Notes under the pieces: model-generated | Told to the model about the DNA's origin: nothing | The model's input: the letters and a program-made list of their open reading frames with translations, nothing else | Databases searched by the model: none | Part shown: positions 6,070 through 56,352 of the stretch, piece after piece | How the letters are laid out: each line of letters starts with the position of its first letter | Position numbering within the stretch: position 1 is the stretch's first letter | Assembly: GCA_016748015.1 (NCBI GenBank) | Contig: JAAOMT010000659.1 | Location: forward strand, 313,222 to 377,221 | Origin: Geosiphon pyriformis uo1 | Taxonomy: Eukaryota > Fungi > Glomeromycota | DNA length: 64,000 bases | Direction: 5' to 3' | Made by a program: the position numbers and the translations under genes

Positions 6070-7178
6070 CTTGCTCTAAATGAAACATATGAATACACTT
6101 AAAATGATAACTTATTTTACAATTTAAGATAATCTTTAAAAAGCGAGAAAATGCAAGATCATTGAGGTTGTTTTGCTGAACCTTAAAAAAATTTTCCCAA
6201 ACAGAAAATGATCAGACACAACAATTTCTTTGAACGGTTAAACACTTGAAAGCATCTAAACTTAAGAATTAATTAAAAGTTAAATAAACTGAATCGCACG
6301 ATACAAGTAAACTTAAAAAGCTTTTCAACTTTTTTTGTTAAAAGGTTTTAATAGACAATCGATTAAGATTTTTATTCGTCATATTATGATACAAAAAATG
6401 TAACTTGTCTTTCAGATTACTACTAAATTACTAAAACGGTTTTAGTTTAAAGAATAAATTTAAAAATTTTTTGGGTTAAAACGGTTTTTGAAAGTTAGGC
6501 TCTAAATTCATGAACTCTTATTTTGAAGATCAATAATCCAAGAAATTAGGGTTTTAAGTTTAATCATTTTTCTATAATTTTCGGTATTTCCCATTGGTAT
6601 AAGACTGTTAATTATCATTAGGATTTATTATTATTATTATTTCTTGATGTTTTCAATTGTCAAGTCTTTTTAACTTTTAAAAAATGAACATTGAAAATCT
6701 CTTTTAAGAGTGCTATTTGAACTATCAGAATTTCCGCGCTGTTTAGCTCAGATCGCGTGCCAAATCTCGGATGAGGAAACAATGAACAAATGGTACTCAT
6801 GAAAGCGGTTAGTTTAACTAACTCGATTAGTAATTTTTTGTGCTGAATGATAAGATGTTCTGGGTTCATCGATGGGATTAAAATTAGCCGACCAGTGCAG
6901 AAATTTACATTTGATGCACAAATAAATCAAGCAGCTCGGTGAACAATGGGTATCCGACAAAAGAAACCAATTATTAAAATGCCTCAAATGAATTGAGCTA
7001 TTGAAAAAGACGATTTTAATAGAATTTCTCAAAGACATAATAATGAGTATTAAGAAATGGTCAAATTTTTTTAGAATAATAATTTATTAATGCCCATTTA
7101 CAAAAGTTTTTAGGATTCATGAATAAAGTTTTCAATGATTCATTTTAAGAATTCTGTAAAAAAACAAATTGGAGTACA

Positions 7179-7507
<329 letters not shown>

Positions 7508-7802
7508 ATCATAAAACATTTCTCAAATGTATTTGTTACAGGATATCCATTTTGAAGAATTTTCGATTTACCATTTTAATGATTTGAACCAAACGACAAA
7601 AGAACGAGAGAAAGTTTTTTGTTTTGATCTACTTTTCACAAAATTCTTTTTTTTAGACCATTTGTCATCTCAACACCCTATTTGAATTTATTTAAAGCTA
7701 TAAAGTCTCCAAAATGATATATAATTGCTTGGCAAATCTTTATGTAAAAGAGTCTAGGCAATAATAAAACTTTTAAAATTAGCCTTTTGAACTTTAAATT
7801 TT

Positions 7803-13748: not shown

Positions 13749-14179
13749 ATGAAACCAGCGAATTTGTCTGCTAATGATTCTGGTTCTAGATCGACTGGAT
13801 TGGAGACCCGGTCTGGCACCAAAAAAAAGATGTGAGTTGAAAGTGTCTACTCTCGTGGTCTATTGTATAAGAAACCTAGAAAACCTGAGGTTGCTGGTGG
13901 AGTTGTAAATTCGTCTGCTGGCTCTCTGCCTGCTGCTTTGTTACATTTGGGTGATGAAAAATGTAAGGTATCTTGGAGAAGTAAAGTTGAAAATGATGAG
14001 TCAAGTATGAGTGAAGTGTCAAATGTAGAGAATATGACGAACACTATTGCCGAAGAAACAAGCTACGCAGAATTTGGTAAAGACAACGAGATGAACGAGG
14101 CTACACCAAAAAAAACCCAGACCCATACTTATGTACTAGGCAAGTCTCTGAAAGCTCCAATGTTTGACTCCATAAGCGA
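13749..14179 (+). pseudogene. 5' fragment of a repeat-derived ORF (probably a non-LTR retrotransposon ORF1 N-terminus), cut by LTR A
   Basis: ATG 13749 MKPANLSANDSGS..., one in-frame TGA, frame continuous with the 13863 ORF and ending exactly at the LTR TGTTA. The ORF1 assignment is inference. Confidence 0.4.
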
Positions 14180-15049
14180 TGTTACAGTTGAATTATTCAG
14201 AGGCTCCAGTCAAATAACAAACCCATAACTTGGTACTCAAAAGCTATTTCCGTCAATGATATTCTGAAAGTATTGTATTTAAAGGTTTTGATAGAGTTTT
14301 TTGTATAATGAACAGAGATTTGATAGTGCGGCGATTCGTTGTTTGTTGTCAGTTGTTTCCTAATTTTTTTCTCAGCTTGGTGGCTGGATTTATTCTGGCA
14401 GTTGTGTCTTTTTGGTAAGCTAATTGATAATATATATAAATCTACTCTTATTTCTGGGTCTTTTACCAGACTATTCATGACGTCAATAATTCAGCATTTT
14501 TAATCTCCAATCAATTAGTAGGTATAACAGAATCAAAGAAAGAAAGAAATGAAATAAAGAAAATAATGATAATGAAGATAAGCCAAGGCAATTTGGTAAG
14601 TTAGTATCTCATCAATAACTATAATCAAGAGCTATTGTTCCAGTGTGGTTAAGTATCAATTACTATCAACACTTCATGTTGATAGTGGAGAGTAGATTGA
14701 GATATAAAATAATTATTTATTTGATAATTGGAAATTGGAAGGTTGCTTAGATTAATCTACACTGAGCAATCTGTCTTTTTAGCTTTTAATCCTGTTGCTA
14801 TATATACATAATTGAGATTCTTCAATTCCTCGATTCTTCACAACAGAAATCCTGGAATTCCTGGAATCCTGCGATTCTTTTGAGAGAAATCCTGGAATTC
14901 TGGAATCCTGCAATTCCTTGTCGGGGAATCCTGAAATTTCTGAAATTCTGCAATTCCTAAGAGGAATCCTGAAATTCCACATTTACTATGTCTACTTCTA
15001 ATTGGCTACTACTCATGGTAATATATTTCTTATATTTCTATGAGTAACA
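14180..15049 (-). repeat. 3' LTR of element A
   Basis: TGTTAC...GTAACA; colinear with 33674-34543; GGAATTCC/GGAATCCTG tandem array at about 14845-14979. Confidence 0.95.
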
Positions 15050-15064
15050 TTATTCCTTTCTTTT
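15050..15064 (-). promoter_or_regulatory. Polypurine tract of element A
   Basis: AAAAGAAAGGAATAA on the minus strand immediately before the 3' LTR. Confidence 0.9.
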
Positions 15065-15665
15065 AATATTGAGCTTTGTCAAAATCCAATTCGTTTAATT
15101 CCCCCTCTTGAAGTATTTCCTGGATTTTGTTTTCAAGAATTACTTGTGTTATTTGGGTCTGTAATTCTTCAAATTGAGCATTGGTGATTTTTCCCAATTG
15201 ATTATTAGTAACTATATCCATTGCTTTGTTGAGCAATATTTCTGGTTTATCCTGAAATGCTGTGTGTATTCGGTATATGGCTCGGGCTTGTGTAGATAAG
15301 TTGTTCTTTCCCACAAAATGTTCTAATTGTTGTAGTATTCTTTTGTCGAATAATTGCTTTGTTTTATCTGTATATAGATTCTGGATATTTATGTGTTGTT
15401 CCAAGTAAAAATAACAATAGTTTCTTGGAAATTGTTGTATCCACCAATTCCAAGTTTCTTTAGTCAACTCTCTTATTGCTAATTTTACATTCACAATGAT
15501 TTTGTCCATCATATTTTCAGTTTTCTTTTGTGTTCTGGGTTGCAATGTCTTTTTAGTATCTTGATATCAAATGATTTGTTGATTGATTGTAATCTTTATT
15601 TTCTGGTGTTGGATCAATTGAAAAAGTTGTTGTGCTAGTGAGTGAATATTGTCTGTAATTTCCAT
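15063..15665 (-). pseudogene. Element A accessory ORF3 (200 codons, one TGA at 15567-15569), unknown function
   Basis: MEITDNIHSLAQQLFQ...FDKAQY*; homologous to ORF3 of B and C. Confidence 0.85.
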
Positions 15666-15716: not shown

Positions 15717-18700
15717 AATCAATTTAATGTGTTGTTGTCAATATTAACAATTGGTTCCAGATCTTGTGGAATCTCATCTGGTTGGACTAGTATTTTCTGT
15801 ACTTCTAATTGTAGAATATTACTGGTAGATAGTAGTGTAATGTTGTGGTATGGTTTCAGTCAATCTCCATGTGCTGCTTTGGTTAAAATTTTGTTATCCA
15901 ATCTTAATTTGTAAGCTCTATTTCCTAGAATTTTTTCTATGTGAAATGGTCCATCTCATTTGGGGTCAAATTTTCCACTCCATTGTTTTTCTGCTTTGGT
16001 ACAATATAAGAGTACCTTGTCTCCAATCTTGAATTCAACTGGTTTGTCTAATAGTTGACTATCATGTCTTTCTTTCTGTTTCTTTTGTGACTTTTGAATA
16101 TTATCAGCTGCTCTTCTTTGTTTGTTTTCCAATGTTTCTATTAAGTCATATGTTCTTCTCAGCAATGTTTCTTGAAAATTCTCTTCTGTTATTGGTTCAG
16201 CTGGATATGTATTAATTTTTCTCTTTACTGGTAATGTTGCTGTTCTACCATATACTAATTTGAATGGTGTTGTTTGTGTAGTATTTTGCTTCATTGTCCA
16301 ATAAGCAAATAATACTGATGGTATAAATAAATCTTATTCATCCTGGTTTTTTTGGCTGAGTTTGGCAATTGCTTCATACAATGTTTTGTTGAATCTTTCG
16401 ACTAATCCGTTGGTTTGTGGATGGTATGGTGATAATAATGGTCTCTTAATTCCGAATTTTTGGCTCAATTCTGTTAATGTTCTGTTCACAAAATGAGTTT
16501 CTTGGTCTGATAATAATTTCTTTGGACAACTGTGTTAACAAATTAAATCTTAATGAATGAATTCAGCAACGAATTCTGCATTCGCTCTTTGAATTGCTTT
16601 CGCCTCTGGCCATTTAGTGAGATAGTTTATGGCTATTGCTATATATCTGTTCCCTCTGCTGGTAATTGTTAATGGTCCAACTAAATCAATTCCAATCCAG
16701 TCGAATGGTTGTCCTACTTTAATTGGTCTTAATGGTTTATTGGGTCTTGTTTCTTCTCTTTGCTGACAAGTGTCACAATTTTGAACATATTGGATGATGT
16801 CTGAATATATTGATGGCCAATAGTATCTTTTTCTGGTTCTTTCTATGGTTGTTTCTTTGTGAAAGTGTCTGGCTGTTGGATTTGAGTGCATGTTGAATAA
16901 TATTGTCTCTTTTTTTGGCTCTGTAATCACTCTGGTTGGCTGATCTGGATCCCTCCTATTTTTCTGATAAAGTATATTTTGGTGAGTGATAAAATATTTT
17001 GATTGTTGTTTGATCCTCTTTCATTCTATTTGAGATAAATTTTTCTTGAACTGTTGAGTGTTTATATAATGTTGGAGTTGTTGATATTTTTGTATGTTCA
17101 TCTTTTGTTATTTTTCGTTGATATTGTTCTGGTTTTGTTATATTTTTGGGTTGAAATGTTCTTAGATTTGTCTTATTTGCAACAAACCATTGGCATTTCC
17201 ATTGTTTTTTTCTTTCTTATAGTGTATAGTATAAGTATATTGTGATAGTGCTATTTTCTATCTGGATTGGCAACTGTCATCAAATTCTTGCTTTTGAAGT
17301 GATGTTAACCCTTTATAATCCGTGTATATATCAAACTTTTGGCTCAAGTATTTGTTCCACTTCATGACTGTCCAATAGATTGCTAAATGTTCTAGTTCTG
17401 GTGTTCCATAGTTCTTTTTGGCTGGTGTTAGACCTCGGCTGACATATGCTACTGGATGTTCTCTACCGTCTGGTCTCTTCTGAGATAGTACTGCTCCCAA
17501 TGCTTGGCCTGATGCATTGGTAGTAATGATAAATGGTTTGTTGTGATTTGAGTAGATCAGTACTGAAGCTTTAATGAGCTTTCTTTTGAGAATATCAAAA
17601 GCTTCTTGTTGACTTTCTGTCTATTCATATTTGGTATTCTTGGTTTGCAGATTATTGAGCAGTTGAGCTATTTTTGAAAAGTTTTTTATAAAGCATTGAT
17701 AATAGCTCACAAATCCCAAGAATGATTTCAATTCAGTCACATTGGTTGGTACTGGAAAGTTCTTTACTATCTCTATTTTCTCTGGATCCATTTTGATGCC
17801 GTCTTTATTGACTATGTGTCTTAAAAATTTTAGTTCTGTTTTGCCAAAGAAGCACTTTGTTGTATTTAACTTTAGTCCTGCTCTTCTTAACCTTTCGAAC
17901 ACTTGAGAAGATGATGAAGATAATCATCAAATGTTTTTGAGAATACATTGGTGTTATCCAAGTATACAACTACTAATTTCTACAATAAGCCAGTATAAAT
18001 AATTTCTATTAGTCATTGGAAAGTGGCTGGAGCATTGGTTAAGCCAAATGGCATCATCTCAAATTTGAAATTCTTTTCTCTAGTGGTGAATGCTGTCTTC
18101 TTTTTGTCAGCTGGATACATGGCTACTTGCCAATAACTACTGTCCAAGTCTAATGTTAAGAACCATTTGTTTCTACTGAAAGTGTCAAATAATTCCTGTA
18201 TTTGTGGAGTTGGATAGCTGTCTCCACGAGTTACACTGTTGAGTTTTCTGTAGTTCACACAAAATCAGATTTTCTCATTCTTTTTACGAACAAGTACTAC
18301 TGGTAATAACTATGGGCTCATTGATGGTTGAATTAGCCCATTGTCAAGCATTCGGTTTATCTCTTGACGGATGATTTCGTGGCTGGCTGGCAGCACTCTG
18401 TATGCTCTTTGTTTGATTGGCATTGCATCTCCAGTCTTGATCTGATGCTGGATGATGTCAGTTCGGCCAAACTCATTTTCACTGGCAAAAATGTCTTTGA
18501 AATTGTTGAGCAATATCTTGAGCTGCATATGTTAGAGTGGATCTAAGTTTCCCATGTTCATTTGTTCCAATTGTTTTGGTTGAAGTAAATAACATTTGTC
18601 TCGTCCATAGATTGTTTGTGATGTGATGTTGACATATCCACAAAGTTGTGGAAAGTCTAGAATGGGGTTTGGTGGTTGGTCTTCTATTTCTGTGGTTAAA

Positions 18701-20354
18701 TATCCTATGGTAGTTCTTTCTGGTATGTTGATGACATTGCCAGTGTTGTTGTAGATGGAAATTTTTATGCAACTATAGCTTTTGGCTAGTATGTGGAGAT
18801 TGATCAGTCCAATCTTTCCTGATTCACAAAGGCTTGCTTCAGCTTCAAAAATCTGTTCTTGCTTCTTTTCCTTCCTTTTTATTGCTAGCATGTACTGGCT
18901 ATATGGTGGAATGGAAATAGCTTGGCTGGTTGAGATAATTTTTCCTTGGCCAACAATTTCTTTCTCTGCCATATTAACTGGTACATCTATTCTACCTATT
19001 GACCCAAATTCCTGTATCCCTCTTGCTGTTATTCCTAACTCTTCCCTGTTTCCCACCAGTACTAACTGAGCTATCTTAACCAAAGATAAGAATATTGCCT
19101 GTGCTATCTTTTTGTTCGGCTTTATTATATAGGCCTTGTTTGAGTCATTTTGTAGCATAGTGATGATATTTCCCACATATTCTGCATCAATTATTCCTCC
19201 TCTTATATTAATTCTTCTTTTTGCTAAACTACTCCTAGATGCTAATTGAACCATTGTTGTTGCTGGAATTTCCAGTACTATTTTCAAATTGATGCAGGTG
19301 CGCATATGTGGTTCCAATTTAATGGTTTCTGTTCCTGGATATCTTTGATTAAATCCTGTATCAGTATCGTGTGCACATTCTGACATAATACCTTCATTAT
19401 TATTGCTGAACCATTTCAGTTTTTGTTTCTTGGTGAGGTCAGGAAGTGCAATATATTGTTCATAGTTTGAGTCAGAGTTTGAATTTGAGTTGATATTGTT
19501 GTCCTTGTCATTGCCATTTTGAACAGAGCTGGAACCATTATTCTCATCATCATTGTTGTCGGAGTTTGAATTGGGATTGAGCAGTGATTCCGACTCTAAT
19601 ACACAACTGCTGATTGGTTCTTTTTCTTCAGGGATCATGTAGATCATGCATGGTAGTGGATTGTAAATGAGGTCACAATTGTCACAATATTCAAAGTCAC
19701 TGAGAATTAAACAATGGTGACACAGTCTTGTATTCAACTGTGCTAGCCATTGTTCTTGCTCTTCTCTAGTGGGTGCCAAGTTCTGGTAGTGTTTATGGAA
19801 CTCTTCTGGTTCCAGAAAATTTATAACTGGCTCTGTGTCCCAGTCAAGCTCGATGGGTTCTGGTGGGTTGTTTTTGATTTCTCTGATCTCTTCGGGTGTC
19901 ACTCCTTCTATTTTGCCAATTGCCATTCTCCAAATTTTGTTATTGTCATGTGAACAACTGTCCAGTTGCTGCACGGCTCTTCTCCAGGCTGTTTCTATTG
20001 GTGTTTCTTTCTTTACCCAGTCGCTTATTAGAATTGTGTATTGACATGACGTGTCACACATTCCTTCATGTCTTGGGATGTTGTTCCACATCTCTTCATC
20101 TAGCAGGGTCTTCCCACAAGCGAGACAAGGTTGATTATCCCATTTTTCTTGCCTCTTTGGTCATCCAAAGCATTCGAATAAGCATGGATGACAGTAGAAC
20201 TTTGTTGTGGTGTGGTATTCCTCATTGTTGCCACAGCATGTGCCCATTGATAACAGTTTCTTGCTGCAATCAATGCATACAAGCCTTGGCCATCAATAAT
20301 TAGATTGTTGTGGAGTGTGGTAAGTGTAGGAATTATAAATGGCAGCAGTTGGTG
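15717..20354 (-). pseudogene. Element A pol, 3' part: Cys-rich domain, dUTPase, RT, RNase H, integrase
   Basis: RSSLAK / GGIIDAEYVG / KIAQAIF / RGIQEFGS (dUTPase); MPFGLTNAPATFQ and YLDN (RT); HPVAY..NYGTPELE (RH); HHCC, IGIDLVGP, NGLVERFN, GPF (IN). Confidence 0.93.
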
Positions 20355-20358
20355 GCAT

Positions 20359-21442
20359 TGTTATGAGTAAACTTGGTGGGTATGGGAAATGGTAACATTT
20401 GGTGCTCTCAATTATTAATGATGCGTCTTCCGTGTAATTCTGTCGGCTTAGTCTTGATTATCAGTCTCTAAAGGTCTATTCCTGGATGTAAATTTTACCC
20501 GTTGAGTTTTTTGGTTATAAGGCACAGAGTTTGTCTTTCATCAATTGCAATGTTTTTCATAAATGTGAGCTTTCTTCTCCAAGCTAATGAGCGCAGTTGT
20601 TAGGGTCTGGCGTTGTCTTTTCGCCCTTCTAGTAAGTTAACAAGATAATGTTAATATTCAAAACTTAGGGGGAGCTTCCTTCTTTTACCAGGCTATCATG
20701 AAGTTTATTCCCAAACAGTTGATTTTACTATGTTGCTGCTCCACAAAAAATTAAGACAGAAAAAGAAAGAAAAAGAAAAAGAAAAGAAAAGAAAAAAGAG
20801 AAAAGATAAATTAGTATCATCAATTGCCGTGATCAAAAGTGATTGGTCCAAATCATTAATAGGTTCGAGGCAGTTATACTAAGAGCATCTATTCTAGAAT
20901 GGAAGTATGAGACAAGGGTTAATTTACGTAAATTTCACGAAGTTCGAGAACATGAATTTGCGATTCTGATTTCTTTTAATAATTGATTTATTTCAGGAGA
21001 TAAAATAGGGAAGATAATAAAGGATGAAGGGATATGGATATTTTAATTTCTGGTCTAAAGGTTCATATTTGTTTTTTCTTCTCTGTCTTTTCTCACTTCT
21101 ACAACTACTTGCTTTTATACATTCTTTTGGTTTTACAGGATTGCTTTCAATTGTCTCACTATTGCTAGCTATTGCTTTGTTGTTTTTGTTATTGCTTCGT
21201 TTTTCTATGTTATCATTAGTTATCCTATGTTATAACATGTTATCTGACATTATTCTGTGTTATTCTGCATTATAACACGTTATCCTATGTTATTGCGCAC
21301 TATTCTGTGTTATTCTGCATTATAACACGTTATCCAACGTTATAACACATTATCCAATGTTATTGTGTATTATTCTGTGTTATGTCATGTTTTTGGTCAC
21401 GTTTCTTCATAACTTTGGATCGGTTTTTCTACTCAGGTAACA
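20359..21442 (-). repeat. 3' LTR of element B
   Basis: TGTTA...TAACA; PPT AAAAAGAGAGAGATAA at 21443-21458; ~11-bp tandem array at about 21220-21385. Confidence 0.95.
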
Positions 21443-21456
21443 TTATCTCTCTCTTT

Positions 21457-22191
21457 TTAAAATTGAGCTCCTGCGAAACTGTATGTATCTGTTATTGTGG
21501 CTTCATTCGTGTAATGTTCGATTGTTGCCTCGAGTATTGTCTTTTGTAGGTCTTCGAACTGTTGATTGGTTATTTGTCTTATGCTGTTAACTGTTATGGT
21601 TTTCATAGATCCATTCAGTAGTACATTTGGACAATGTTGGAAGGCGGCGTATAGTCAGTATGCTGCTTTGTAATGTAGGGTCAAGTTGTTTTTCCCTATG
21701 AATTTTTCTACTTGTTGTATTGCTTCTTTGTTGAACGTTTTCTGGCTGAGGTCTTCGTATAGTGTTTTCAAGTCAAGCTGTTCTCCAATTTTGTAGAACC
21801 AATAAGCTGGAGGAAGTCTTTCTTTCCATTCCTGGGCATTGTTAGATGTTCACTCCCCTGTTTTGAAGAGTTTGGTCCCATGAGCTAAAGCTTGTTTTAT
21901 TTCTTTGAACTCAGAGACCAAATATCTTCTTTTGTAACTTTTTTCTTGTTCTTTGTCTCCTTCTTTTCCATTCCCCACCCGAAGGCAATTTTTCCTCCCA
22001 CATTGCCTTTCGGGTGGTGGGTAGAGGAAAGAATGTTTAGTTCTAATTGAACTCTTATCCTCCCCTCTCCTGCTCTTATCTTTGTATCATATCTCTTTTT
22101 TATTAATTGTTATTTCTATTTAAGATGTCAATTTTTGAATTGTTTCAAATAATTGTTTAGATAATTTTAAAATTTGATCTGAAAAGTCTAT
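21457..22191 (-). pseudogene. Element B accessory ORF3 (~245 codons, start ATG>ATA, several stops)
   Basis: (M)DFSDQILKLSKQLFE...PPAYWFYKIGEQL...KAAY*LYAAFQHCPNVLL..ITVNSIRQITNQQFEDL...FAGAQF*. Confidence 0.8.
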
Positions 22192-22269: not shown

Positions 22270-25200
22270 GTCTACATTTCGATGACAATGATTGGTTTCA
22301 GATTTCATGGTATATCTTCTGGTCTGATTAATGAAATTTGTGTTCCTAGTTGAGGTATTGATGATGATGATTCCTGTTTTACATGATAAATTTTTAACCA
22401 ATTTCTATGCGCTACTTTCTTTAAAATCCTGTCTTCTAATCATAATTTGTAAGTTCCATTTCCTAATGCTTCGTGTATGTGGAATGAACTGTCCCACTTT
22501 GGATCAAACTTTCCACTCCACTGTTTCTCAGTTTTTGTATGATATAACAGTACTTGGTCTCCAATCTTGAATTCCATTGGTTGTTCTGGCAGGTGTTTAT
22601 CATGTCTTTCTTTTTGTCGTTCTTGAGCATGACTAATATTGTCAGCTGCTGTTCTTCGATTGTTTTCCAATGTTTTCATTAGCTGGTACATTTTTTGGTG
22701 TAAGATAGCCTCAAAATTCTCTTCATTGATTGTTTCTGTTGGGTATAACAGTATCACTCATTCAATCGGTAACGTAGCTTTTTTTTCATAGACTAGTTTG
22801 AACAGTGTGAACTGAGTCATATTTTGTTTCAATGTTCGGTATGCAAAGAGTACAGAAGGTATAAATAAGTCCCATTTTTGTCTGTTTTCATGACTTATTT
22901 TTGCTAATGCTTTGCATAGTGTTCTGTTAAACTGTTCTACCAGTCCGTTCGTTTGTGAGTGGTATGGTGACGATAAGGGTCTTTTTATTCCAAACTATTG
23001 GCTTAGTTTAGTCAACGTATTATTAATGAAGTGTGTTCCCTGATCAGATAATAATTCTTTCGGACATCCATGTCGGCAAATTAGGTCTTGATGCACAAAT
23101 TCGGCAACTGTTTTAGCATCGGCCACTTGGATTGCTCTGGTTTCTGGCCATTTTGTAAGATAGTCTATGGCTATAGCAATATAGCAATTTTCTTGGGATG
23201 TAATTGAAAGAGGTTCAACCAAATCGATCCTGATTCTATCAAATGGATTTCCAACTGGAATGGGTCAAAGTGGTTCTGTTGATCTTGCTCCTTCTTTTCG
23301 CTGGCATGTGTTACAATTGAGCACGTATTCGAAAATGTCTTTGTGCATCATTGGCCAATAGTATAAGTTTAGTGTTCTTTCGAGGGTAGCGTCTTTGTTA
23401 AAGTGTCCTGCAGTCAGATCTGAGTGCACGCTATATAGTATAGTTTCTTTTTCACTGTCTGTGATTAGTCGTTGTGGGTTGAGATGGTTTTGGCATTCTT
23501 GTCGATATAGTTGGTTGTCTTGAATAAAATAATTTTGGGCTTGTTTTCATATGGTACTCTGTTCCTGTTGAAATAATATCTCCTTGAAACATAGTGTCGA
23601 TAGATACTGATGTAGTCATTAATAAGTGAGTGTGTCCATGAGTCTGGGATTAGGTTTGTGGCATCTTCAACAAACTGTCGGCATTGGTGTTCTTGGATCC
23701 TTCTTTGTAATGGACTTTGAGTGGGAATTGTTGCAGATAAGTACTCCATCTCGCATATTTTTCTTCTAGTTGTGGATTGTTGAGTAACCAAATAAGTCCT
23801 TTGTGGTCAGTATATAGGTCAAATAGTTGACTGAAGTAATGTTTCCAAGTTTGTATGGCCCAATAAATGGTGAGACATTCCAGATCTGTTGTGCTGTAAT
23901 TCTTTTCTGCTGGACTAGTGCTGCGACTAGTGTAGGCAACTGGGTGTTCTCTATTGTCTGGTCCTATCTGTGATAAAACTGCTCCTAGAGCATTTTTCGA
24001 GGCATCCGTAGCGACAATGAACTATTTAATGAAATCTGGGTAAATCAGAATTGGGGATGTGATTAATCACTGCTTGAGATAGTCGAATGCTTTCTGTTGA
24101 TCTTCCTTCTACAAGTACAGTATGTATTTGGACAACAATTGATGGAATGGTTTTGTGATGTTCAAGAAACCTTTGACAAATTGACGATAATATCCTGCTA
24201 ATCCTAGAAATCCTCATAATTCTCTGAAGTTGATTGGGGCTAGAAAATCCTTGACTTTTTGTACTTTATCTGAATCGGATTTAACTCCGTCCTTGCCGAT
24301 TACATGTCTTAAGAATTTTAACTTGGTTTTTCCAAAGAAGCATTTCTCAGAATTGAGTTTCAATCTGGCACTACAAAAGCATTCGAAGATTTGTTGCAGG
24401 TAGAGCAGATGGTCTTCAAATGTTTCGGAAAACACGTTTGTGTTGTCTAAATAGACTACTATTGATTTCCAAAGAATTCCTTTGTATACTACATCCATCA
24501 GGCATTGAAACGTGGCAGGAGTATTACAAAGTCTAAAAGGCATTATGTTAAATTTGAAGTTTTTGTCTCGAGTAGTAAACGCTGTTTTTCCTTTGTCTTT
24601 GGGATCCATTTCAACTTGCCAGTAACCACTTACTAAATCTAATAATGAGAACCATTTCTTTTTCCCTAGATTGTTCAGAATTTCCTGGATGAGGGGAGTG
24701 GGATAACTATCTCTTCGCGTGATGCTATTTAGTTTTTGATAATCTACGCAGAATTGCACTTTTCCATTTTTCTTGGTGACCAAGACTACTGGCGAGAACC
24801 AAGAGCTTAACGATTCTTTGATTAAGCTGTTATCAAGCATTTGTTGCACTTCTTGCTTAATTAGGTTATCACCAGATGGGGGTATGTGGTAAGCTCATTG
24901 CTTAATTGGTCGAGCATCTCCTGTATCAATCTAATGCTTCACAATGTCGGTGCATCCGAACTCATTTTTGCTGGCAAAGACATCGGCATACTGATTCAGA
25001 AGGACTTTGAGTTGCATTTGTTGCAGGGTACTTAAATTTTTTAAATTCAATTTATTGATTTCTTCTAGTGTGAACAAGTAACTTTCCTTTTGGCAAATTC
25101 CATACTTGTGAAGTAATGTCACAGAATAAGAATAATTGTGCGAAATCTGGAATGGACTGGGGTTTTTCAGGATTCTGACTATCTGCAGATATGGAACTGA

Positions 25201-27290
25201 CGAGGGTCCCTTCAGAGATTTCAATAACATCTTCTGTCGGGTTGTGAATGGGGATTTTGAAGTGTTTATGAGCTTTGGCCGATAGGTATAGATTAGCAAC
25301 ATTGGCTAGGGAACAGATTTCAGAACTGGCTTCGAATAATAGGGCTTGATCTTGGATCTTTCAATTCACCTTAAGGATGTATTGTCAGTATGGGGGAATG
25401 GAGATGACGGTGTCGGTGTGAATAAATTCTACCTGGTCACTGTCTTTCTCCGTAAAATTAACTGGTATGTTTCCTTTTCCACTTGATCCAAACCCATTGA
25501 TTCCTTGGGCAGTGAGGCCTAACTCTTCTTAGATTGTTACCAGGGTTAATTGGGGTATTTTGACTAGGGGTAGAAAGATAGCTTGGGCAATCTTTTCTTG
25601 TGATTCTATTTTGTAGAGTTTGTCCAAATTGTTCTGTAGCATCATGATGATGTTTCCCGTGTAACCAGCATTGATAATTCCTCCTTTTATGTCAATTCTT
25701 TTCTTGGCTAGACTAGATCGAAAGGCAACTTGTACCATTGTACTAATAGGAATTTCTAACGCTATCTTAAGATCTATTTTTACGAGAGAATGTGGGGCTA
25801 TAATGATGGGTGATTGTCTGGGGTATTGTAGGTCGAAACTGGCATCAGTGTCATGTGCTCTTTCAGAGCAAATTCCTTCCTTGTTGTCACTGTACCATTT
25901 TAGCTTTAGTTCTTTGGATAGGTTGGGATACACGAGATACTGTTCTGTTTCGGTATCCTCAGTTGGATCTTGAAACAACATGTCCTCGGTGATCAATACC
26001 TCTTCTTCAAGTTCAGGTAGTTTGGTGATTGGAAACAGTATTCTTGAAGGCAGATTGAACATAAGATCACATTCATTACAGTACTGGAAGTGACAGGGGA
26101 TCAAACAGTGATCACATAGTTTGGTATTCAAATTGGCCAACCTTTGTTCCTGTTCTTTGTGAGTTGAGGCCAATTCCTGATATCAGTTCTGAAATGTGTC
26201 TGGGTCATCTGTGAAGAAATCATCCTCAGGGTAGTTGGGTCCAGTATATTTGGGCGTCCAAGGGTTGTTCTTAATTTTTCGTATTTCTTCGGATGTGGCG
26301 TCTTCGGCCTTGGCGCTTGCCATTCTCCAGATTTTGTGGTTATTGTGTAGATAACCGTCTAGCCTGTTGAGTGCTTATTTCCAAGCGTTCTCAATGGGGA
26401 TTCTCTTTCATACCCAATCGTTGATTAATATGGTGTATTGACAAGCCTTGTCATATGTTCCTCCTCTGCCAGGCACATCATTCCAGAGTCTTTCATCTGG
26501 CAGGATTTTGCCACATGCGAGGCACAGTATGTGGTCTCACTTGCTTTGTCGTTTTGGTTGTCCAAATCTTTCCAGTAAACAAAGCCTGTAATAGTATTTG
26601 GTGGTGGTGGGCCATTCTTCATTGTCCCTGATACATGCGCCCATAGTGGATAGTTTTTTTCCACAATCAACACATATTAGTCTTGGGGTTGGTAAAATAA
26701 GTTTCTTTGGTCTGAGGTTATGTATCCTAGTGATGACAATTGGGGTTCTTCTTCGGCTCTGTCTTTTCTTTTTTCTTCCCAGGTTGGTGGTGGGGGTAGT
26801 TCAGTTCGATAATCATCCGCCCATGAAACCTGATAGGTCTCGATGATTGATGGCATTGATGTGTCTTCAAATTCAATAAGAGGTTCCTCGGTACATTGGT
26901 TTTTAAAGTGTCCACACATAGCTGGGACTTGGGCATGCTGTCCATTAAACGTGAGTTGAAGTTCTTGGGTGTTCCAGTTGAGAGTAACATTGGCTTTTGA
27001 CAACCAGTTGTTTCCTACTAGAGCTTAATATTGAGTAGCTTCCATGATGAGTACTTTGGTAGGGATTTGGATTCCATTAATCTCGAAAAGGAAGTTGTCA
27101 ATTTTTCCTATCAGGGTTTTTGTGTTTCTATCAGCTGTAATGATCTGGGTGGTAGCAGCACAGTCTACTCAGTGACCTAGTTGGTCCATGAGCTGCTTCA
27201 TGATTATGCTACTGGCTGATCCACTATCCAAGATTAATTTAATGTCTATTCCTCCAACTCTGGCATTGGTGTATAGGGCTGTTATTGGTT
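22270..27290 (-). pseudogene. Element B pol: protease, Cys-rich domain, dUTPase, RT, RNase H, integrase
   Basis: LILDSGSA (PR); DASFDLQYP / RSSLAKK / GGIINAGYTG / KIAQAIF / GINGFGSSG (dUTPase); YLDN (RT); LLSDQGTHF (IN). Confidence 0.93.
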
Positions 27291-29501: not shown

Positions 29502-29902
29502 TGTTACAGGTAAACTTGGTGGATATGAGAAATGGTAACGTTTGGTGCTCTCAATTATTGATAATGCATCTTTCACATAATTCTGTTGGCTTAGTCTTGA
29601 TTATCAGTCTCTGAAAGTCTATTCCTGGATGTAAATTTTACCCGTTAAGTTCTTTGGTTATAAGGCACAGAGTTTGTCTTTCATCAATTGCAATGTTTTT
29701 TGTAAATGTGAGCTTTCTTTTCCAAGCTAATGAGCACAGTCATTAGGGTCTGGCATTGTTTTTTCGCCCTTCTAGTAAGCTAACAAGATAATGTTAATAT
29801 CCAAAACTTAGGGGGAGCTTCCCTCTTTTACCAGGCTATCACGAAGTTTATTTGCAAACAGTCAATTTTACTATGTTGCCGCTTCACAAAAAATTAAGAC
29901 AG

Positions 29903-29939
<37 letters not shown>

Positions 29940-30609
29940 AAAAAAAAGAAAAGAGAGAAAAGATAAATTAGTATCGTCAATCGCCATGATCAAGAGCGAT
30001 TGGTCCAAATCATTAATAGATTCAAGGCAGTTATACTAAGAACATTTGTTCTAGAATGAAGGTATGAGACAAGGGTTAATTCACGTAAATTTCACGAAGT
30101 TTGAGAACATGAATTTGCGATTCTGATTTCTTTTAATAATTGATTTATTTCAGGAAATGAAATAGGGAAGATAATAAAGGATGAAAAGGTATGGATATTT
30201 TAATTTCTGGTTTAGAGATTTATATCTGTTTTTTCTTCTCTGTCTTTTCTCACTTCTACAACTACTTGCTTTTATACATTCTTTTGGTTTTACAGGATTG
30301 CTTTCAATTGTTTCACTATTGCTAGCTATTGCTTTGTTGTTTCTGTTATTGCTTCATTTTTCTATGTTATCACTAGTTATCCTATGTTATAACACGTTAT
30401 CTGATGTTATTACATGTTATTCTGTGTTATTCTGCATTATAACACATTATCCTACGTTATTGTGCACTATTCTGTGTTATCCTGCATTATAACACGTTAT
30501 CCAACGTTATAACACATTATCCAACATTATTGTGTATTATTCTGTGTTATGTCACGTTTTTGGTCACGTTTTTTCATAACTTTGGATTGGTTTTTTTACT
30601 TGGATAACA
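29502..30609 (-). repeat. 5' LTR of element B
   Basis: Colinear with 20359-21442; expanded A-run at about 29903-29937. Confidence 0.95.
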
Positions 30610-30613
30610 GCAT

Positions 30614-33673: not shown

Positions 33674-34543
33674 TGTTATAGTTGAATTATTTGAAGTCTC
33701 CAGTCAAATAACAAACTTGTAACTTGGTGTTCAAAAGCTATTTCCATCAATGATATTCTGAAAGTATTGTATCTGAAGGTTTTGATAGAATTCTTTGTAT
33801 AATGAACAGAGATTTGATAGTGTGGCGATTTGTTGTTTGTTGTTAGTTGTTTCCTAATTTTTTTTTCAGCTTGGTAGCCGGATTTATTCTGGCAGTCATG
33901 CCTTTCTGGTAAGCTAACTGATAATATATATAAATCTACTTTTATTTCTGGGTTTTTTACCAGGCTATCTGTGACGTCAATAACTCAGCGCTTTTAATCT
34001 CCAATTAATTAGTAGGCACAACAAAATCAAAAAAAGAAAGAAATAAAATAAAGAAAATAATGATGATGAAGATAAGCCAAGGCAATTTGATAAGTTAGTA
34101 TCTTGTCAATAGCCATGATCAAAAGCTATTGTTCCAGTATGGTTAAGTATCAATTATTATCAACATGAAGTGTTGATAGTGGAGAGTGGATTAAAATATA
34201 AAATAATTATATATTTGATAATTGGAAATTGAAAGGTTGCTTAAATTAATCTATACTAAGAGATCTGTTTTTTCAGCTTCTAATCCTGCTGCTATATATA
34301 CATAATTGAGATTTCTCAATTCCTTGATTCTTCATGACAGGAATTCTGGAATTCCTGGAATCTTGCAATTCCTTTAAGAGGAATCTTGGAATTCTGAAAT
34401 CTTGCAATTCCTTGTCAGGAAATCCTGAAATTCCTGGAATCCTGCAATTCTTGGAAGGAATCCTGGAATTCCACATTTACTACACCTACTTCTAATTGGC
34501 TACTACTTATGCTAATATATTTCCTATATTTCTATGAGTAACA
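33674..34543 (-). repeat. 5' LTR of element A
   Basis: 870 bp, TGTTA...TAACA, colinear with 14180-15049. Confidence 0.95.
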
Positions 34544-37500
34544 ATGACCACCCCATCAAACTAATCTTAGACAGTGAATCAGCTGGCAGCATTATCACAA
34601 GACAACTTATAGATCAATTAGGTTGTCAAGTTGATTGAACTGCCAGTACTAGAATCATAACAGCTAATGGAGTGACAAAAACTTTGATTGGTAAAATAGA
34701 CAACTTACCTATTGAAATTAATGACATCATTGTGTCAATCAAAGTATTAGTCATGAAAGCCACTTAATATTAAGCCCTCGTTGGCAATAATTGGCTGTTC
34801 AAAACCAATGTGACATTTGATTAGAACACACAAGAGCTTTAACTCAACCAGAACGGTTGACATACATGGGTACCAGCCATGTATGGCCACTTCAAAACTC
34901 TCAACATGCCAGCACCTCTTATTAAGTTCAAGGAAGAAGAGAAAAAACCTACTTGGGAGGCCTATCAAGTATCATGGGCCAACAAAGACCACAATGAGTT
35001 ATCTCCAATACTCTTGTAGAGTAGTAACGAGAAAGAAAAGAAAAAAGAAGAACCTACCTGGAATTCCGACCAAGTCTGAAGAACCAATGACAACCAAGAA
35101 GAGCTAATAGATTGGGAATGGGAAGAAAAGACAAAAAAAAAAGAAAAGGGGAAAGAAGAAGGATCAATATCCACCAGCATCATCACTTATAATTCTTACA
35201 CTATACTACAGCAATTTGCTTATCACCACCCAAAACTGGTATGCATTAATTGTGGCAAAAAATTGTTGTCAATAAGCACTTGTTGTGGCAATGATGAGGA
35301 ATACCAGACAGCAACCAAGTTCTACTATCACTTATGCATCATAGAACATTTTGAAAGACCAAAATGAGTGAGAAAATGGGATAATAAGCCATGCTTGGCT
35401 TGTGGAAAAACTCTCCTTGATAAAAGAATGTGAAATGACATTTTTGGGAGAGGAAGAACATGCGACAAATCATGTCAATATATAATTCTCATAAGTAACT
35501 GAGTGAGAAAAGAAACATCCATAAATGCCATCTGGAGACATACAGTCAAATGATTGGACAAATGTCCACACGATGATGACAAAATCTAGCAAATGACACT
35601 TACCAAAATCGAAGAAGCATCACCAGAAAAAATAAAAACAATTAAAGATAACTTACCTGAACCCATAGAACTTAATTGGGACCCAGAACCAGTCATAAAT
35701 CTACTAGATCCAGAACAATTCCACAAACACTATCAGGAATTAGCACCCACTAGAGAGAAACAAGAGCAACAGTTGGAAAAAATTAACATTCGACTATGTG
35801 ACCATTGTTTGATTTCCTGTGACTTTCAATATTGTAATGAGTGTGACCTCATTTACAATCCACCAATCTGCATGATTTACATGATCTCAGAGGAAAAAAA
35901 ACCAATCAGCAGCTATGTATCAGAATCAGAATCAAATTTCAACTCTAATTCAAACTCTAACAATGATGATGATAAAAACAATGATTCCAGCTCCATTCCA
36001 AATAGCAACAAAAATTACGATGATTCAAACTCTGATTCAAACCCCAAAACATTTATTGTATTTTCTGACCTCACCAAGGAACAGGAACTTAAATGGTTTA
36101 GCAATAATGGTGAAGATATCATGTTAGAACGCACACATAATACTGATGCAGGGTTTGATCTGAGATATCCAGAAAAGGATGCCATCAAATTGGAACCCCA
36201 TTTATGCAGTAGTATTGATCTCAAAATAGTACTAGAAATTTCAGCAACAACCATGGTTCAATTAGCATCTAGGAGTAGCCTAGCAAAAAAAAAGATTAAC
36301 ATCAGAGGAGGAATAATTAACACAGGATACATAGGAAATATCATTGCTATACTACAAAATGATTCAGAAAAAGCATATATTATAGATCCAAACAAAAAGA
36401 TAGCACAAGCAATATTTCTACCTCTGGTTAAAGTAGCTAAATTAGTATCAGTGAGAAACAAGAAAAAATTAGGAATAACAACAAGAAGGATACAGGAATT
36501 TGGATCCACAGGTAGAATAGATGTACCAGTTAATATAACAAAGGAAGAAATTGTTGACAAAGAAAAAATTATCTCAACCCATCAACCAATTTCCATTCTA
36601 CCATATGACCAGTATATGTTAGCCATAAAAAGAGAAGTAAAGAATCAAGCTCAGTTGTTTGAAGCAGAAGTCATCATTTGTGAATCAGGAAAGATTGGGC
36701 TTACTAATCTTTACATATCAGCCAAAAGCCCCAAAAACATCAAAATTCCCATTTACAACACAACCAAAAATATTATTGAGATACCAAAAGGAACTATCAT
36801 TGGATATTTAACCATTAAAGTTGAGGATCAACCACCAAACTACATTTCAGATTTTCCACAGCTTTGTAAATACATGGACATTACATCACAAACTATTTAT
36901 GGACAAAGTGAATGTTATCTGCTTCAACCAAAACAATTGGAACAGATAAACATGGGAAATTTAGATCCACTCCAACAGATGCAACTAATGATATTACTCA
37001 GAAATTTTAATGACATCTTTGTTAGCAAAAATGAATTTGGCTGCACCAACATCATCTAGCATTAAATCAAGACTGGAGATGTAATGCCAATTAAACAAAG
37101 AGCATACAGAATACCACCAGCCAGCCATAAGATTATTCATCAAAAAATTAACTGAATGCTTAACAATGGGCTAATTTAGCCATCAATGAGCCCATAGTCA
37201 TTATCAGTAGTACTGGTCCAGAAAAAGTATGGAAAGATTTATTTCTGTGTGGATTATTGAAAACTAAATGGAGTAACCAAAGGTGATAGCTATTCAACTC
37301 CAAAGATCCAAAAACTATTCAATGTTTTTGGAGAAAATAAATAGTTCTCAACACTAGACTTAAACAGTGGTTACTGGCAAATAGCCATGAACTCAGAAAA
37401 CAAAAAGAAAACAGCTTTTACAACTCGAGAAGGAAACTTTGAATTTGAAGTAATGCCATTTGGCTTGATGAATGTACCAGCAACATTCCAATGGCTCATG

Positions 37501-39758
37501 GAAATTGTATATACTGGGCTACTATGGAAATCAGTAATTGTATACTTGGATAACACCAATGTGTTCTCAAAAACATTTGATGATCATCTGTATCATCTCT
37601 AACAAGTGTTTAAAAGACTAAGAAGAGCCAGATTAAAACTAAATACAACTAAATGTTTCTTTGAGAAAACTGAACTCAAGTTTTTGGAACATGTGATAAG
37701 CAAAGATAGAATTAAAACAGATCCAGACAAAATTGAGATTGTCAAAAACTTTTCAGTACCAAATAATCTTATGAAATTGAGAGCATTTTTGGGATTTGCT
37801 GGATACTACCATTGCTTTATCAAAGATTTCTTCAAAATAGCTCAATCACTACACCAACTTCAAACAAAGAACACCAAATATGAATGGACTGAAACTCAAC
37901 AAGAAGCTTTTGATACATTGAGAAGAAAGCTCATTCAAGTTTCAGTACTGATCTATTCAAATCATAGCAAGCCATTTATAATCACAACTGATGTATCTGG
38001 TTAAGTGTTGGGAGCAATACTATTGCAGAAAAGACTGGATGGAAGAGAACATCCAATAGCATACACTAATAGAAGCTTAAGTCCAGCTAAAAAAAACTAT
38101 GGAACTCCAGCACTAGAACACTTAATTATCTATTGGGCTGTCATCAAGTGGAAGAAATACTTGAGTCAAAAGTTTGATGTATACACTGATTACAAGGGAT
38201 TGACTTCAATCCAGAAACAAGAATTCAGAAACAATTGCCATGCCAGATAGAAAATAAAACTTTCACCATTCAATTATATGATACATTATAAAAAAAGAAA
38301 AGACAATGAAAATGCTGACGGATTGTCATGAATAAGACAAATCTAAAAATATTTCAACCCAAAAATATAACAAAAGATGAATATTCAAAAATACCAACAA
38401 CTACAACATTATATAAATATCCAATTGTTCAAGGAGAAATTATCTCAAAAGGAACAAAAAAACATAAAACAACAATCAAAATATTTTATCAATCATCAAA
38501 ATATACTTTACCAGAAAAACAGAAAAAATCCAGACCAGTCAACAAGAGTAATTACAGAACCAGAAAAAGAGATAATATTGTTCAACATGCACTCAGATCC
38601 AACAGTAGAACATTTTCATAAAGAAGCAACCATAGAAAGAACTAAAAAAAAATACTATTGGCCATCAATGTATTTAAACATCATCCAGTATGTTCAAAAT
38701 TGTGATGCTTGTCAGAGAAGAGGAGAAACAAAACCCAGTAAACTATTGAGACCAATCAAAGTGGGACAACCATTTGATCGAATTGGGATTGACTTAGTTG
38801 GACCATTAACAATCACCAGCAAAGGCAACAGATATATTGCAGTAGCCATGGACTATCTCACTAAATGGCCAAAAGCAAAAGCCATTCAAAAAGCAGATGC
38901 AGAATCTGTTGCCAAATTCGTATATCAAGATTTGATCTGTCAACACAGATGTTCAAAAGAACTACTATCAGATCAAGGAACCCACTTTGTGAACAGAACA
39001 TTGACAGAATTAAGTCAAAGATTTAGAATTAAAAGACCATTATCATCACTATATCATCCACAAACAAATGGCTTAGTTGAAAGATTTAATAGAATACTGT
39101 GTGAAGCAATCGCAAAAATCAGCCAAGAAAATCAAGAGGAATAGGATTTATGTATACCATCAGTATTATTTGCTTATCGGACAATGAAGCAAGATACCAC
39201 ATAAGCAACACCATTTGAATTGGTATATGGTAGAACAGCAACATTACCAATTGAGATAGAGATCAATATGTATCTAACTGAACCAATAACAGAAAATAAT
39301 TTCTAAGAAACATTGTTGAAAAGAACATATAACTTATTGGAAACACTAGAAAACAAACAATAAAAAGCAATAATAACATCTAAAAGTCACAAGAAAAGCA
39401 AAAAAAACAACATGATAACCAATTACCAAATAAACCAGTTGAATTCAAAATTGGAGACAAAGTACTATTATATTGTACCAAAGTGGAAAAACAATAGAGT
39501 GGAAAATTTGACCCCAAATAAGACAGATCATTTCACATAGAAAAAATTCTTGGAAATGGAGCTTATAAATTAAGATGGGACAACAAAATTTTAGCCAAAG
39601 CAGCACATGATGATCGACTAAAACAATATTACCAGATAGTATTATCATTTACCAATAACATTCCACAATTGGAAGTATAAAGAATACTAGTTCAACTAGA
39701 TAAGATTCCACAAAATCTGGAACCAATCATAATTATTGAACCAAACACATCAAATTGA
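34544..39758 (+). pseudogene. Element C pol
   Basis: DAGFDLRYP / RSSLAKK / GGIINTGYIG / KIAQAIF / EFGSTG; MPFGLMNVPATFQ and YLDN; HHCC, IGIDLVGP, SDQGTHF, NGLVERFN. Confidence 0.93.
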
Positions 39759-39813: not shown

Positions 39814-40449
39814 ATGAAAATACCAGATTATATTCACACTTTAATTCAACAATTATTCCAAACCATAAGTCAACAACAGTTAAACATAGAAATTATTATT
39901 AACAACCAAATAATTTGCTATCGAAACACCAAAAGAAAGACAAAAAATACACCATATCAGCAATCACTAAAGAATGATAAAAACTGGACAGATAAAATAA
40001 TAGAAAAAGTAAAAACCACTTTTGAAAAAATACTTATTATAGCACCAACAAAAGAGCTTACAAAAGAAAATTGAAAACAATAAACAAAATGACTTCCAAT
40101 ATTATATTGCTACTACCAGTTAGGTCAAAAGTTGAATATTCAGAAGTTGTATATCAACAAATCTAAGAGAATATTCAACCAAAACATAATACAACAAATT
40201 GAAGAATTTATTAGAAAGAAAACAAATTCAACACTACATGTCAAAACAATATACCAACTACACAACATATTTCGGAACTATCTAGAAATACTGTTATATT
40301 CTGACATGGAAACCATAACCATCAACCAATGGGAAAGAATGAACAATACACAAGTAGAAGACATGAAAAACAGAGTCGAACAAACAATACTTGAAAAAGA
40401 AGTATTAGAATTAATTCAAAACAAAAATTTTGATAAAGCTCAATATTAA
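39814..40449 (+). pseudogene. Element C accessory ORF3 (212 codons, internal stops)
   Basis: MKIPDYIHTLIQQLFQ...FDKAQY*; ORFs 39814 and 40132 are in one frame. Confidence 0.85.
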
Positions 40450-40464
40450 AAAAGAAAGAGATAA

Positions 40465-41246
40465 TGTTATTCATAAAAAAAAAAAACAGATATAGAAAAA
40501 ATAGTAAACCAATAAGAGAGTAGTAGTTAGCATGTAAGCATATTACTCAGTAATGTAAGCATTGCTAGAAAAATTATAGCACATTGCTCAAGAGTATAAG
40601 CAATCTTGTAAAACTCAAATTATGTATATATAGTGATAGCATTAGAAATAGAAAAGGCAGACCTCTCAGTTTAGATTTTATCTAAGCAATCTTCCAATCC
40701 ACAAAATATCAAATAAATAATTATTCTCTATCTTAAATTTACTCTCCACTATTAACACTACATGTTGATAATAATTGATACTTAACCATGCTAGAACAAT
40801 AGCTCTTGATCACAACTATTGACGAGATACTAACTTGCAATTGCTTTTGTTCAATTCTTTATCTTTTGCTTTATTTTTTTTTATTTTCTTTATTGTTTTA
40901 ATCTTATTGTTGTTTACTAATTGATTGAGAATTAAAGCACTGAATTATTAATGTCACGAATAGCTTGATAAAAAACCCAGAGATAAGGATAAGAATATAT
41001 ATTAATAGATAGCTTACCAGAAGGACATGACTACCAGATTAAACCAGCCACCACACTGAAGACAGAAATTGGAAAAACCACTTACCAATCACATCGACAT
41101 TGAATCTCTGTTTATTATACAAAAAACTCAACTCTAAAACCTTTAAATATTCTCAACACACCAGTATTACCAGCATTAGTAAGACATTGAGCACCAAGTT
41201 ACAGATTTGTTATTTGATTTAAGACTCCAAATAATTATCTGTAACA
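40465..41246 (+). repeat. 3' LTR of element C (782 bp)
   Basis: TGTTA...TAACA; alignable with the reverse complement of LTR A from the GTATATATAG box (about 40624) onward. Confidence 0.92.
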
Positions 41247-44227: not shown

Positions 44228-45031
44228 TTAATTAATTCAAATTTTAATCATATTTTTTACAATTAAGAATTTTTTTAATTCACAAATTCAAAAACATTTT
44301 TTAGGTGCTTTAAATTGCTGTTAAAATATTGTTTATCAAAAATTATTTATTTAATAAAATTTATCTTAATTTAAAATTGTTAAAAATTTTTTTTTTAAAT
44401 TCAAATATATAAATGTAAAATTTGTAAAAACAAGACCATAATATTTGAATCTGTTTATAACAAAGTGTTTTTTAATTATAAAATACTATAAATTACTTAA
44501 AACATTTTAAAAAATTAATATATATAATTTATATTCAATTTTATATAAAAAAAAGTATTTTTTATTTTGGAAATTGTTAAATTAATTTATTTTTTTTGTT
44601 AAACGACTCATCTACAACATATAATATTAATATATATAGAATTTTAATATTTATTTATTAATAATTTTAATAAATATTAATTTAATTAAAATAAAAATAA
44701 CTTTTTTTTATATAAAATTAAATATAAATTATATATTTAATTTTTTATTATGTTTTAAGTAATTTATAGTATTTTATAATTAAAAAACACTTTGTTGTAA
44801 ACAAATCTGAATATTATAGTCTTGTTTTTTATAAATTTTATATTTATGTACTTAAATTTAAAAAAAACATTTTTAACAATTTCAAATTGAAATAAATTTC
44901 ATTAAATAGATAATTTTTAATAAGCAATATTTTGTTTAAAATGATTTAAAGTACTTAAAAAATGTTTTTAAGTTTATTGATTAAAAAAATTCTTAATTGT
45001 AAAAGATGTGATTAAAATCTATATTAATTAA
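44228..45031. mobile_element. Foldback / MITE-like inverted repeat (~340-bp arms, ~120-bp spacer)
   Basis: 44228-44568 is the reverse complement of about 44688-45031, with mostly transition mismatches. Confidence 0.8.
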
Positions 45032-55900: not shown

Positions 55901-56352
55901 TCACCACTATCAATGATGATTGAAAAGAAGCGAATACGTTACGCTAATGTCCATCACGTAAATAAAAATAGATAATACAACGTATTCAAAGATAAAATTT
56001 GTATTTTTATGGTTGTTCCTTGCCTCAAGATGATGGACTGATCCTGCCCAGTTCGTCGCATATGCAGATAAGCTTGGGAGGCTATCTGAAATGCGTGCGG
56101 TGGTAAGGGAGTTCGTTGGCCAGAGGTGTCTTTATAGTCTGCAACGTATTCCTGCACTGTAGCTTCACTAAAGATAGGAAGTTCATTGTAAGGATTGATG
56201 GCGACAAGAACCGATTGGCTTATACGAGTATATATAGAATCTTTTTGATAACGGTCTTTAATAAAGGTTGTTATAGATTCTGGGGAGATTGATTGTAGTT
56301 TTGTGATGTCGGTTTTGTCCTCACTTGATAATTTTGTTTTTCCCTTGGCCAT
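49948..56352 (-). CDS. Class V chitin synthase with N-terminal myosin motor, cytochrome b5-like region and C-terminal DEK_C, 7 exons
   Basis: [10 protein letters not shown]-loop, [38 protein letters not shown]. Exons 56352-56024, 55906-54079, 53998-51346, 51177-50773, 50631-50299, 50039-50026, 49959-49948 (ends IELCLQGKL*). Confidence 0.95.

Follow-up and report, generated by a model that had tools for sequence, protein, structure and literature searches.

A third gene family behind a stand-alone integrase in Ty3/Gypsy retrotransposons of Geosiphon pyriformis

Extra genes after pol in reverse-transcribing elements

The usual picture of a fungal Gypsy element shows no genes but gag and pol. 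Here we describe a third open reading frame (ORF), ORF3, in the env position of three Ty3/Gypsy elements, A, B and C, that lie in a 64,000-nucleotide stretch of the Geosiphon pyriformis uo1 genome (contig JAAOMT010000659.1, positions 313,222 to 377,221; hereafter the window). Sense ORFs between pol and the 3' long terminal repeat (LTR) are known in LTR retrotransposons as aORF-3S (Vicient and Casacuberta 2020, PMC7264820). ORF3 has the attributes of that class, being separate, placed between pol and the 3' LTR and kept across copies; the two share position, sense orientation and presence across copies. They differ in that the plant examples are called env-like and some have transmembrane helices, whereas ORF3 has none, is fungal and stands behind a stand-alone integrase.

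Other lineages offer closer or more distant parallels. Novikova et al. 2010 (PMC2864245) list a dUTPase and an additional ORF of unknown function ("add. ORF") among the features of some Gypsy elements of fungi; one element, PosPlaTy3-5, carries its dUTPase between protease and reverse transcriptase (RT), as do A, B and C. The LTR retrotransposons of bdelloid rotifers also carry ORF3s (Rodriguez et al. 2017, PMC5408684), which resemble ours in being non-env, of similar size and borne by dUTPase-bearing lineages, but encode GDSL esterases, DEDDy exonucleases or membrane proteins; Pfam scans found none of these domains in Geosiphon ORF3. Foamy-virus Tas/Bel1, of 209-308 amino acids, resembles ORF3 in size, in rapid divergence and in its place near the 3' LTR, and has an acidic activation domain (PMC3798896). 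Caulimovirus P6/TAV (PMC3759858) and the CERV protein of Cer1 (PMC10309623) serve reverse-transcribing elements as accessory regulators; those elements have a nuclear phase and RNAs that are spliced or carry several cistrons. Neither the 50 BFVD matches shown nor the Pfam hits gave a sequence or fold link to Tas, which is proposed here as a functional analogue, and no homology of ORF3 to P6/TAV or CERV was found.

A survey of fungal LTR elements does not mention a third ORF in the part of its text at hand (PMC3248453), and our literature searches found no paper on the ORF3 family. The initial annotation of this DNA did not recognise the family, and it has stayed nameless: Pfam scans and structure comparison gave no clear match to a characterised domain. 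An extra sense ORF after pol is a known kind of feature; ORF3 itself is a genuine family of accessory genes, as yet without a name, carried by a Gypsy lineage of three cistrons. That selection has kept a third gene in at least eight subfamilies, downstream of an integrase that stands alone, implies that this lineage needs a function beyond the standard model.

A separate gene between integrase and the polypurine tract

All three ORF3 frames run in the sense of pol, between integrase and the polypurine tract, and in each element the ORF3 stop is followed immediately by a purine tract of 13-15 nt and then by the TG of the 3' LTR. The features concerned are:

15063 to 15665, minus strand: ORF3 of A, 200 codons plus TAA, one internal stop (codon 33)
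15050 to 15062, minus strand: polypurine tract of A, directly 3' of the ORF3 stop
15719 to 17101, minus strand: integrase cistron of A (decayed), own ATG 60 nt past the RNase H stop
17101 to 17164, minus strand: RNase H/integrase junction of A
21457 to 22191, minus strand: ORF3 of B, 244 codons plus TAA, four internal stops, first codon ATA
21443 to 21456, minus strand: polypurine tract of B
22272 to 23639, minus strand: integrase cistron of B (decayed), ATG 10 nt past the RNase H stop
23639 to 23652, minus strand: RNase H/integrase junction of B
39814 to 40449, plus strand: ORF3 of C, 211 codons plus TAA, three internal stops
40450 to 40464, plus strand: polypurine tract of C
38377 to 39758, plus strand: integrase cistron of C (decayed; zinc-binding and rve domains), ATG 30 nt past the RNase H stop
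38344 to 38377, plus strand: RNase H/integrase junction of C

The initial annotation had placed the three frames exactly, as sense frames after integrase, and had correctly noted that their stops adjoin the tract. Its description of a separate ORF in each element stands insofar as a homologous frame is present in all three, but none is intact and that of B starts with ATA; every ORF3 copy in the window is dead. The ORF3 frames of A, B and C hold one, four and three stops, compared with 10-21 in the other sense frames and 10-14 in antisense. Uninterrupted relatives exist for each type (P0004, 209 amino acids and 84% identical to A; P0124, 244 amino acids and 80% identical to B; P0251, 211 amino acids, C type), and they begin at their own Met. 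By pairwise BLASTP, with E values for a small database, the frames are homologous between A and C (37.5% identity over 216 columns, E 8e-36), A and B (27% over 248, E 2e-22) and B and C (38% over 119, E 1e-22). The accompanying statement that the LTRs of these families barely align is right where B is compared with A or C (about 100-117 nt at 73-75%), whereas the LTRs of A and C do align, at 74% over 654 nt.

Selection has to be judged against the way these copies decay. Differences between paired LTRs are nearly all transitions in A and B (92 of 98 and 82 of 83), a pattern that resembles methylation-driven mutation or repeat-induced point mutation and that would bias simple dN/dS and the isoelectric point of the protein. 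The NG86 method gave an omega (dN/dS) of 0.25-0.40 for ORF3, a low value that transition-biased decay alone can mimic (neutral pN/pS with transitions only, 0.50; observed for A-C, 0.47). When the observed transversion share was included, the minimum pN/pS in 300 neutral runs was 0.58, and the second-position share of ORF3 mismatches (0.23) fell under all 600 neutral runs. A codon model with kappa returned an omega of 0.28 for ORF3; shifting the alignment by one or two bases gave 1.0 and 1.6, and the dUTPase ORF gave a comparable 0.25. Transversions between A and C are distributed 37/19/55 over codon positions 1/2/3; a test at fourfold sites was significant in one of three pairs only, with 8-15 sites each. 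With omega at 0.28 rather than near 1, the past selection read from amino-acid conservation in the initial annotation is borne out: ORF3 is a formerly selected gene that was under purifying selection.

The layout of the three elements is Gag-PR-dUTPase-RT-RH / integrase / ORF3 (PR, protease; RH, RNase H), in three cistrons. Integrase is not part of a single Pol polyprotein in any of them: in all three, which are decayed copies, RNase H ends in TAA and a new ATG opens integrase after a further 60 nt in A, 10 nt in B and 30 nt in C. Gag in B continues in frame into protease. The integrase of A ends at a TGA (15719-15721) 53 nt ahead of the ORF3 ATG. In C a TGA occupies the same site as in A, 55 nt ahead of the ATG, and ORF3 is in phase +1; in B the integrase stop lies 80 nt ahead and ORF3 is in phase -1, with the same upstream frame in two B-type gene models, P0140 and P0144. 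We also examined the A junction in 639 contig records, which come from one DNA run (X1) that is possibly the source of the window and are hence not independent of it. The only change listed at the integrase stop in these records is TGA to TAA, at 33% of depth, and no sense codon was seen there at a 12% threshold. An extra base precedes the ORF3 start in 94% of the depth, so that in most A-family sequence ORF3 shares the frame of integrase and begins 54 nt past the integrase stop; an earlier ORF3 ATG is present in 73%.

That shared frame is an argument for regarding ORF3 as no more than the C-terminus of integrase, severed when the element decayed, and so are 20 of 256 proteins in the set (A, B and D types) in which the integrase tail runs into ORF3. 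The position of the join varies widely among them, in the manner of introns placed by a gene predictor, and we read these joins as showing linkage rather than fusion. The stop that persists in the A family, its shared position in A and C, the other phases of B and C and the private Met of the uninterrupted relatives all speak against a lost tail. Because the integrase stop is conserved while the phase differs between families, the comparison argues for a separate gene, in agreement with the initial annotation; the truncation reading, already largely refuted by stop persistence and phase differences, keeps hardly any credence.

Searches with the frame of A gave 132 matches among 184 candidates; of the 120 relatives listed, 119 are named G. 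pyriformis hypothetical proteins and one is the window's own. The frame of B matched 37 of 140 candidates, all from G. pyriformis, and a profile search of 1.84 billion representatives gave 122 matches. More than 150 "hypothetical" G. pyriformis gene models (119 and 37 named matches) can be reassigned to transposon debris. The family comprises at least eight subfamilies at 15-43% identity, mostly from G. pyriformis, with two metagenome proteins, P0202 and P0247, on JGI contigs of 3.7 and 2.1 kb; P0247 was matched at only E 5.7e-4, yet over nearly its full length. No named match from Rhizophagus, Gigaspora or Ambispora was among the relatives found. In subfamilies D, F and G (11 proteins) the product has an acidic end of the type E-E-[EK]-I-M-L, which is what a purine tract followed by the TG of an LTR would encode. 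Because of this correspondence, their frames (P0171, P0179, P0200, P0202) likely run through the tract into the LTR, unlike those of A, B and C, which stop just before it, and the metagenome relative P0202 likely occupies the same position before an LTR. A candidate recorded as the sole metagenome match, L001:7694-8545, is a phage gene between portal and capsid-like genes and was treated as a false match.

Predicted protein and possible functions

The AlphaFold model of A-type ORF3 has a pLDDT of 76, falling below 50 at residues 40-49, and no clear structural match. It predicts four parts: an N-terminal helix with a beta-hairpin, a disordered basic linker, a compact helical core at about residues 78-195, with the conserved pattern Y-x-[IL]-G..G-K-x-N..A-x-R-L-Y, and an acidic and hydrophobic tail that is modelled at low confidence. 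Seventeen columns are common to at least six of eight subfamily representatives, including Y94, G98, K129, N131, R141, F146 and L153 (P0004 numbering), and suggest no catalytic set. Profile comparison with ParB-type helix-turn-helix and DUF1016_N domains gave 0.75% and 0.25% probability with small alignments, and a Pfam E of 0.037 for one of 39 members. The best 19-residue Kyte-Doolittle mean is 0.30-0.57 in A-C and 0.27-1.29 across 13 of 13 sequences, with no transmembrane segment; hydropathy shows no hydrophobic N-terminus, no dedicated signal-peptide predictor having been run. Because it lacks a membrane segment, the product is not env-like, and the earlier picture of a soluble, mostly helical accessory protein fits what we find.

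Two features of this otherwise anonymous protein lend some support to a nuclear function. The linker carries a net charge of +4 to +8 in 12 of 13 sequences, and six of the eight subfamilies have an R/K/H-x(2-5)-PY motif, as in C:

39934 to 39957, plus strand: basic R/K-x(2-5)-PY motif in the linker of C ORF3, a candidate PY nuclear localisation signal (PY-NLS)

Basic PY-NLS sequences are read by yeast Kap104, and only 11 of 20 predicted yeast motifs were bound (PMC2408616). Conservation of so short a motif, in a linker that is disordered and between sequences of 20-30% identity, suggests a function. The tail has a net charge of -3 or lower in 16 of 25 sequences.

With a candidate import signal, helical core and acidic tail, and as a gene of 200-245 amino acids beside the 3' LTR, ORF3 recalls the plan of Tas. 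By this analogy we tentatively propose, at somewhat less than even confidence, that ORF3 is a small nuclear transactivator of its own element; every step beyond a separate, selected gene is inference. The protein would be made from the stand-alone third gene of these dUTPase-bearing elements, either from a subgenomic RNA or by ribosomes that restart 24-80 nt past the stop of integrase, and may be imported by the Kap104/transportin route through its PY-type signal. The core would then bind DNA of the element's own LTR and the tail would activate transcription, raising expression of the element against host silencing as Tas does for foamy viruses. The PY motif is absent from A (0 of 99) and from P0247, the subfamilies that have it are kin, and the acidic tail is weak in B. 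Among the functions floated at the outset, transactivation, anti-silencing and RNA export gain some support from the basic motif and acidic tail, and movement in hyphae gains none. Should ORF3 prove to be a self-activator or anti-silencing factor, it would supply a testable cause for LTR expansion in Archaeosporales, together with a new helical domain. Short imperfect repeats of 9-10 bp lie at 14846-14975, at the U3 end of the A LTR, and would be candidate binding sites for a transactivator.

Other roles draw on the same features. As an integration cofactor, ORF3 would bind integrase or complementary DNA, bring the complex into the nucleus by way of the pore and anchor it on chromatin in place of a chromodomain. 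Immediately upstream of ORF3 is a stand-alone integrase with an SH3-type tail at its end (PF24626 on several matches), and the one integrase stretch scanned, which lacks its C-terminus, showed no chromodomain; a PY-NLS would serve import, the frame shared with integrase in most A-family depth would permit occasional readthrough, and a pre-integration complex must reach the nucleus, for which retroviruses use accessory proteins (PMC7264820). B and C, however, are out of frame with integrase, the acidic hydrophobic tail would be unneeded and structure comparison found no reader-domain fold, and we consider such a cofactor unlikely. A P6/TAV-like protein that lets ribosomes restart on a three-cistron RNA and suppresses RNA silencing would suit the junctions: in each of the three elements, integrase and ORF3 both start at an ATG that follows a stop, by 10-60 nt and 53-80 nt respectively; P6 too is a last-position gene that drives reinitiation and suppresses silencing, needing nuclear import for the latter (PMC3759858). 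There is no sequence or fold match to P6 among the BFVD matches shown. ORF3 is also far shorter than P6, and no viral factor need be involved if ribosomes restart after a nearby stop or if the RNAs are spliced; we hold this role distinctly unlikely.

If integrase and ORF3 were instead translated from spliced RNAs, the full-length RNA would need an export route, and ORF3 could be a Rev- or CERV-like factor that exports unspliced genomic RNA and whose basic linker could bind RNA; the CERV protein of Cer1 is nuclear and made from spliced RNA (PMC10309623). We found no conserved branch point or YAG acceptor upstream of ORF3 shared by A, B and C, and regard an exporter as quite improbable. The env position, and a host fungus that is coenocytic, would suit a movement protein or one associated with particles, perhaps folded like the coat protein of a filamentous virus, and the ESM Atlas ranks closterovirus coat protein (PF01785) first for P0247 (0.94, 166 shared features). 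The recognition value of 2221 is nevertheless under the mark of 2300, P0002 gave a different top family, CATCHR subunits, no coat protein appeared among the 50 BFVD matches shown or in Pfam scans, and a nuclear signal would not be expected; a particle or movement role seems very improbable. Returning to the proposed transactivator, a bolder extension, which we hold unlikely, is that these are "complex" fungal retrotransposons of three cistrons whose last gene encodes a new-fold regulator that turns on the element in the face of host methylation and small RNAs and may, in addition, drive ribosome restart for the stand-alone integrase. ORF3 would then correspond, in a fungus, to Tas or P6 and would be one cause of the LTR burst that makes up two fifths of the Geosiphon genome (LTR elements, 41.2%; PMC11952901).

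The retrotransposon nest and the rest of the window

The LTR retrotransposon nest occupies 14.2-41.2 kb of an AT-rich window. It has the marks of Ty3/Gypsy elements (Metaviridae), namely TG...CA LTR ends, a primer-binding site, a polypurine tract and the order gag-PR-RT-RH-IN (IN, integrase), with Pfam matches to Ty3_capsid, Retrotrans_gag, zinc knuckle, RVT_1, Integrase_H2C2, rve and dUTPase, the last between protease and RT (PF00692, E 1.5e-15). Its framework is as follows:

14180 to 15049, minus strand: 3' LTR of A (TG...CA), 88.7% identical to the LTR at 33674-34543
33674 to 34543, minus strand: 5' LTR of the A family, then TT and a TGG primer-binding site
20359 to 21442, minus strand: 3' LTR of B
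29502 to 30609, minus strand: 5' LTR of B, 92.3% identical to the B 3' LTR
20355 to 20358 and 30610 to 30613: target duplication of B, 4 bp
40465 to 41246, plus strand: 3' LTR of C
18532 to 20160, minus strand: open stretch of the first cistron of A, with a Cys/His-rich segment and dUTPase, between protease and RT

B has inserted into A and is flanked by its 4-bp target duplication, which could be a decayed CpG-centred site. The A-family 5' LTR adjoins the protease region of C. Element A is probably composite, because the outer flanks of its two LTRs (14176-14180 and 34543-34547) do not join: the left flank is an unrelated ORF (13836-14228) and the right enters the protease of C. It may have arisen by recombination between LTRs or in the assembly.

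Between protease and dUTPase, three regions (18532-20160 and 25529-26182 on the minus strand, 35590-37059 on the plus strand) contain a conserved segment that is rich in Cys and His and has CxxC pairs and an Asn/Ser/Asp-rich spacer. This segment has no Pfam match and is possibly an unnamed zinc-binding domain.

Outside the nest, a host gene at 51335-55938 (minus strand) encodes a myosin-motor chitin synthase (Myosin_head, Cyt-b5, Chitin_synth_2), and a glutamine synthetase-like piece lies at 58853-59497 (plus strand). At 7103-7540 lies a long array of tandem repeats (9-bp period), with several of its frames open. Nested AT-rich inverted repeats at 44228-45031, with arms of 88-108 nt that are 86-88% complementary, are possibly a foldback or MITE-like element.
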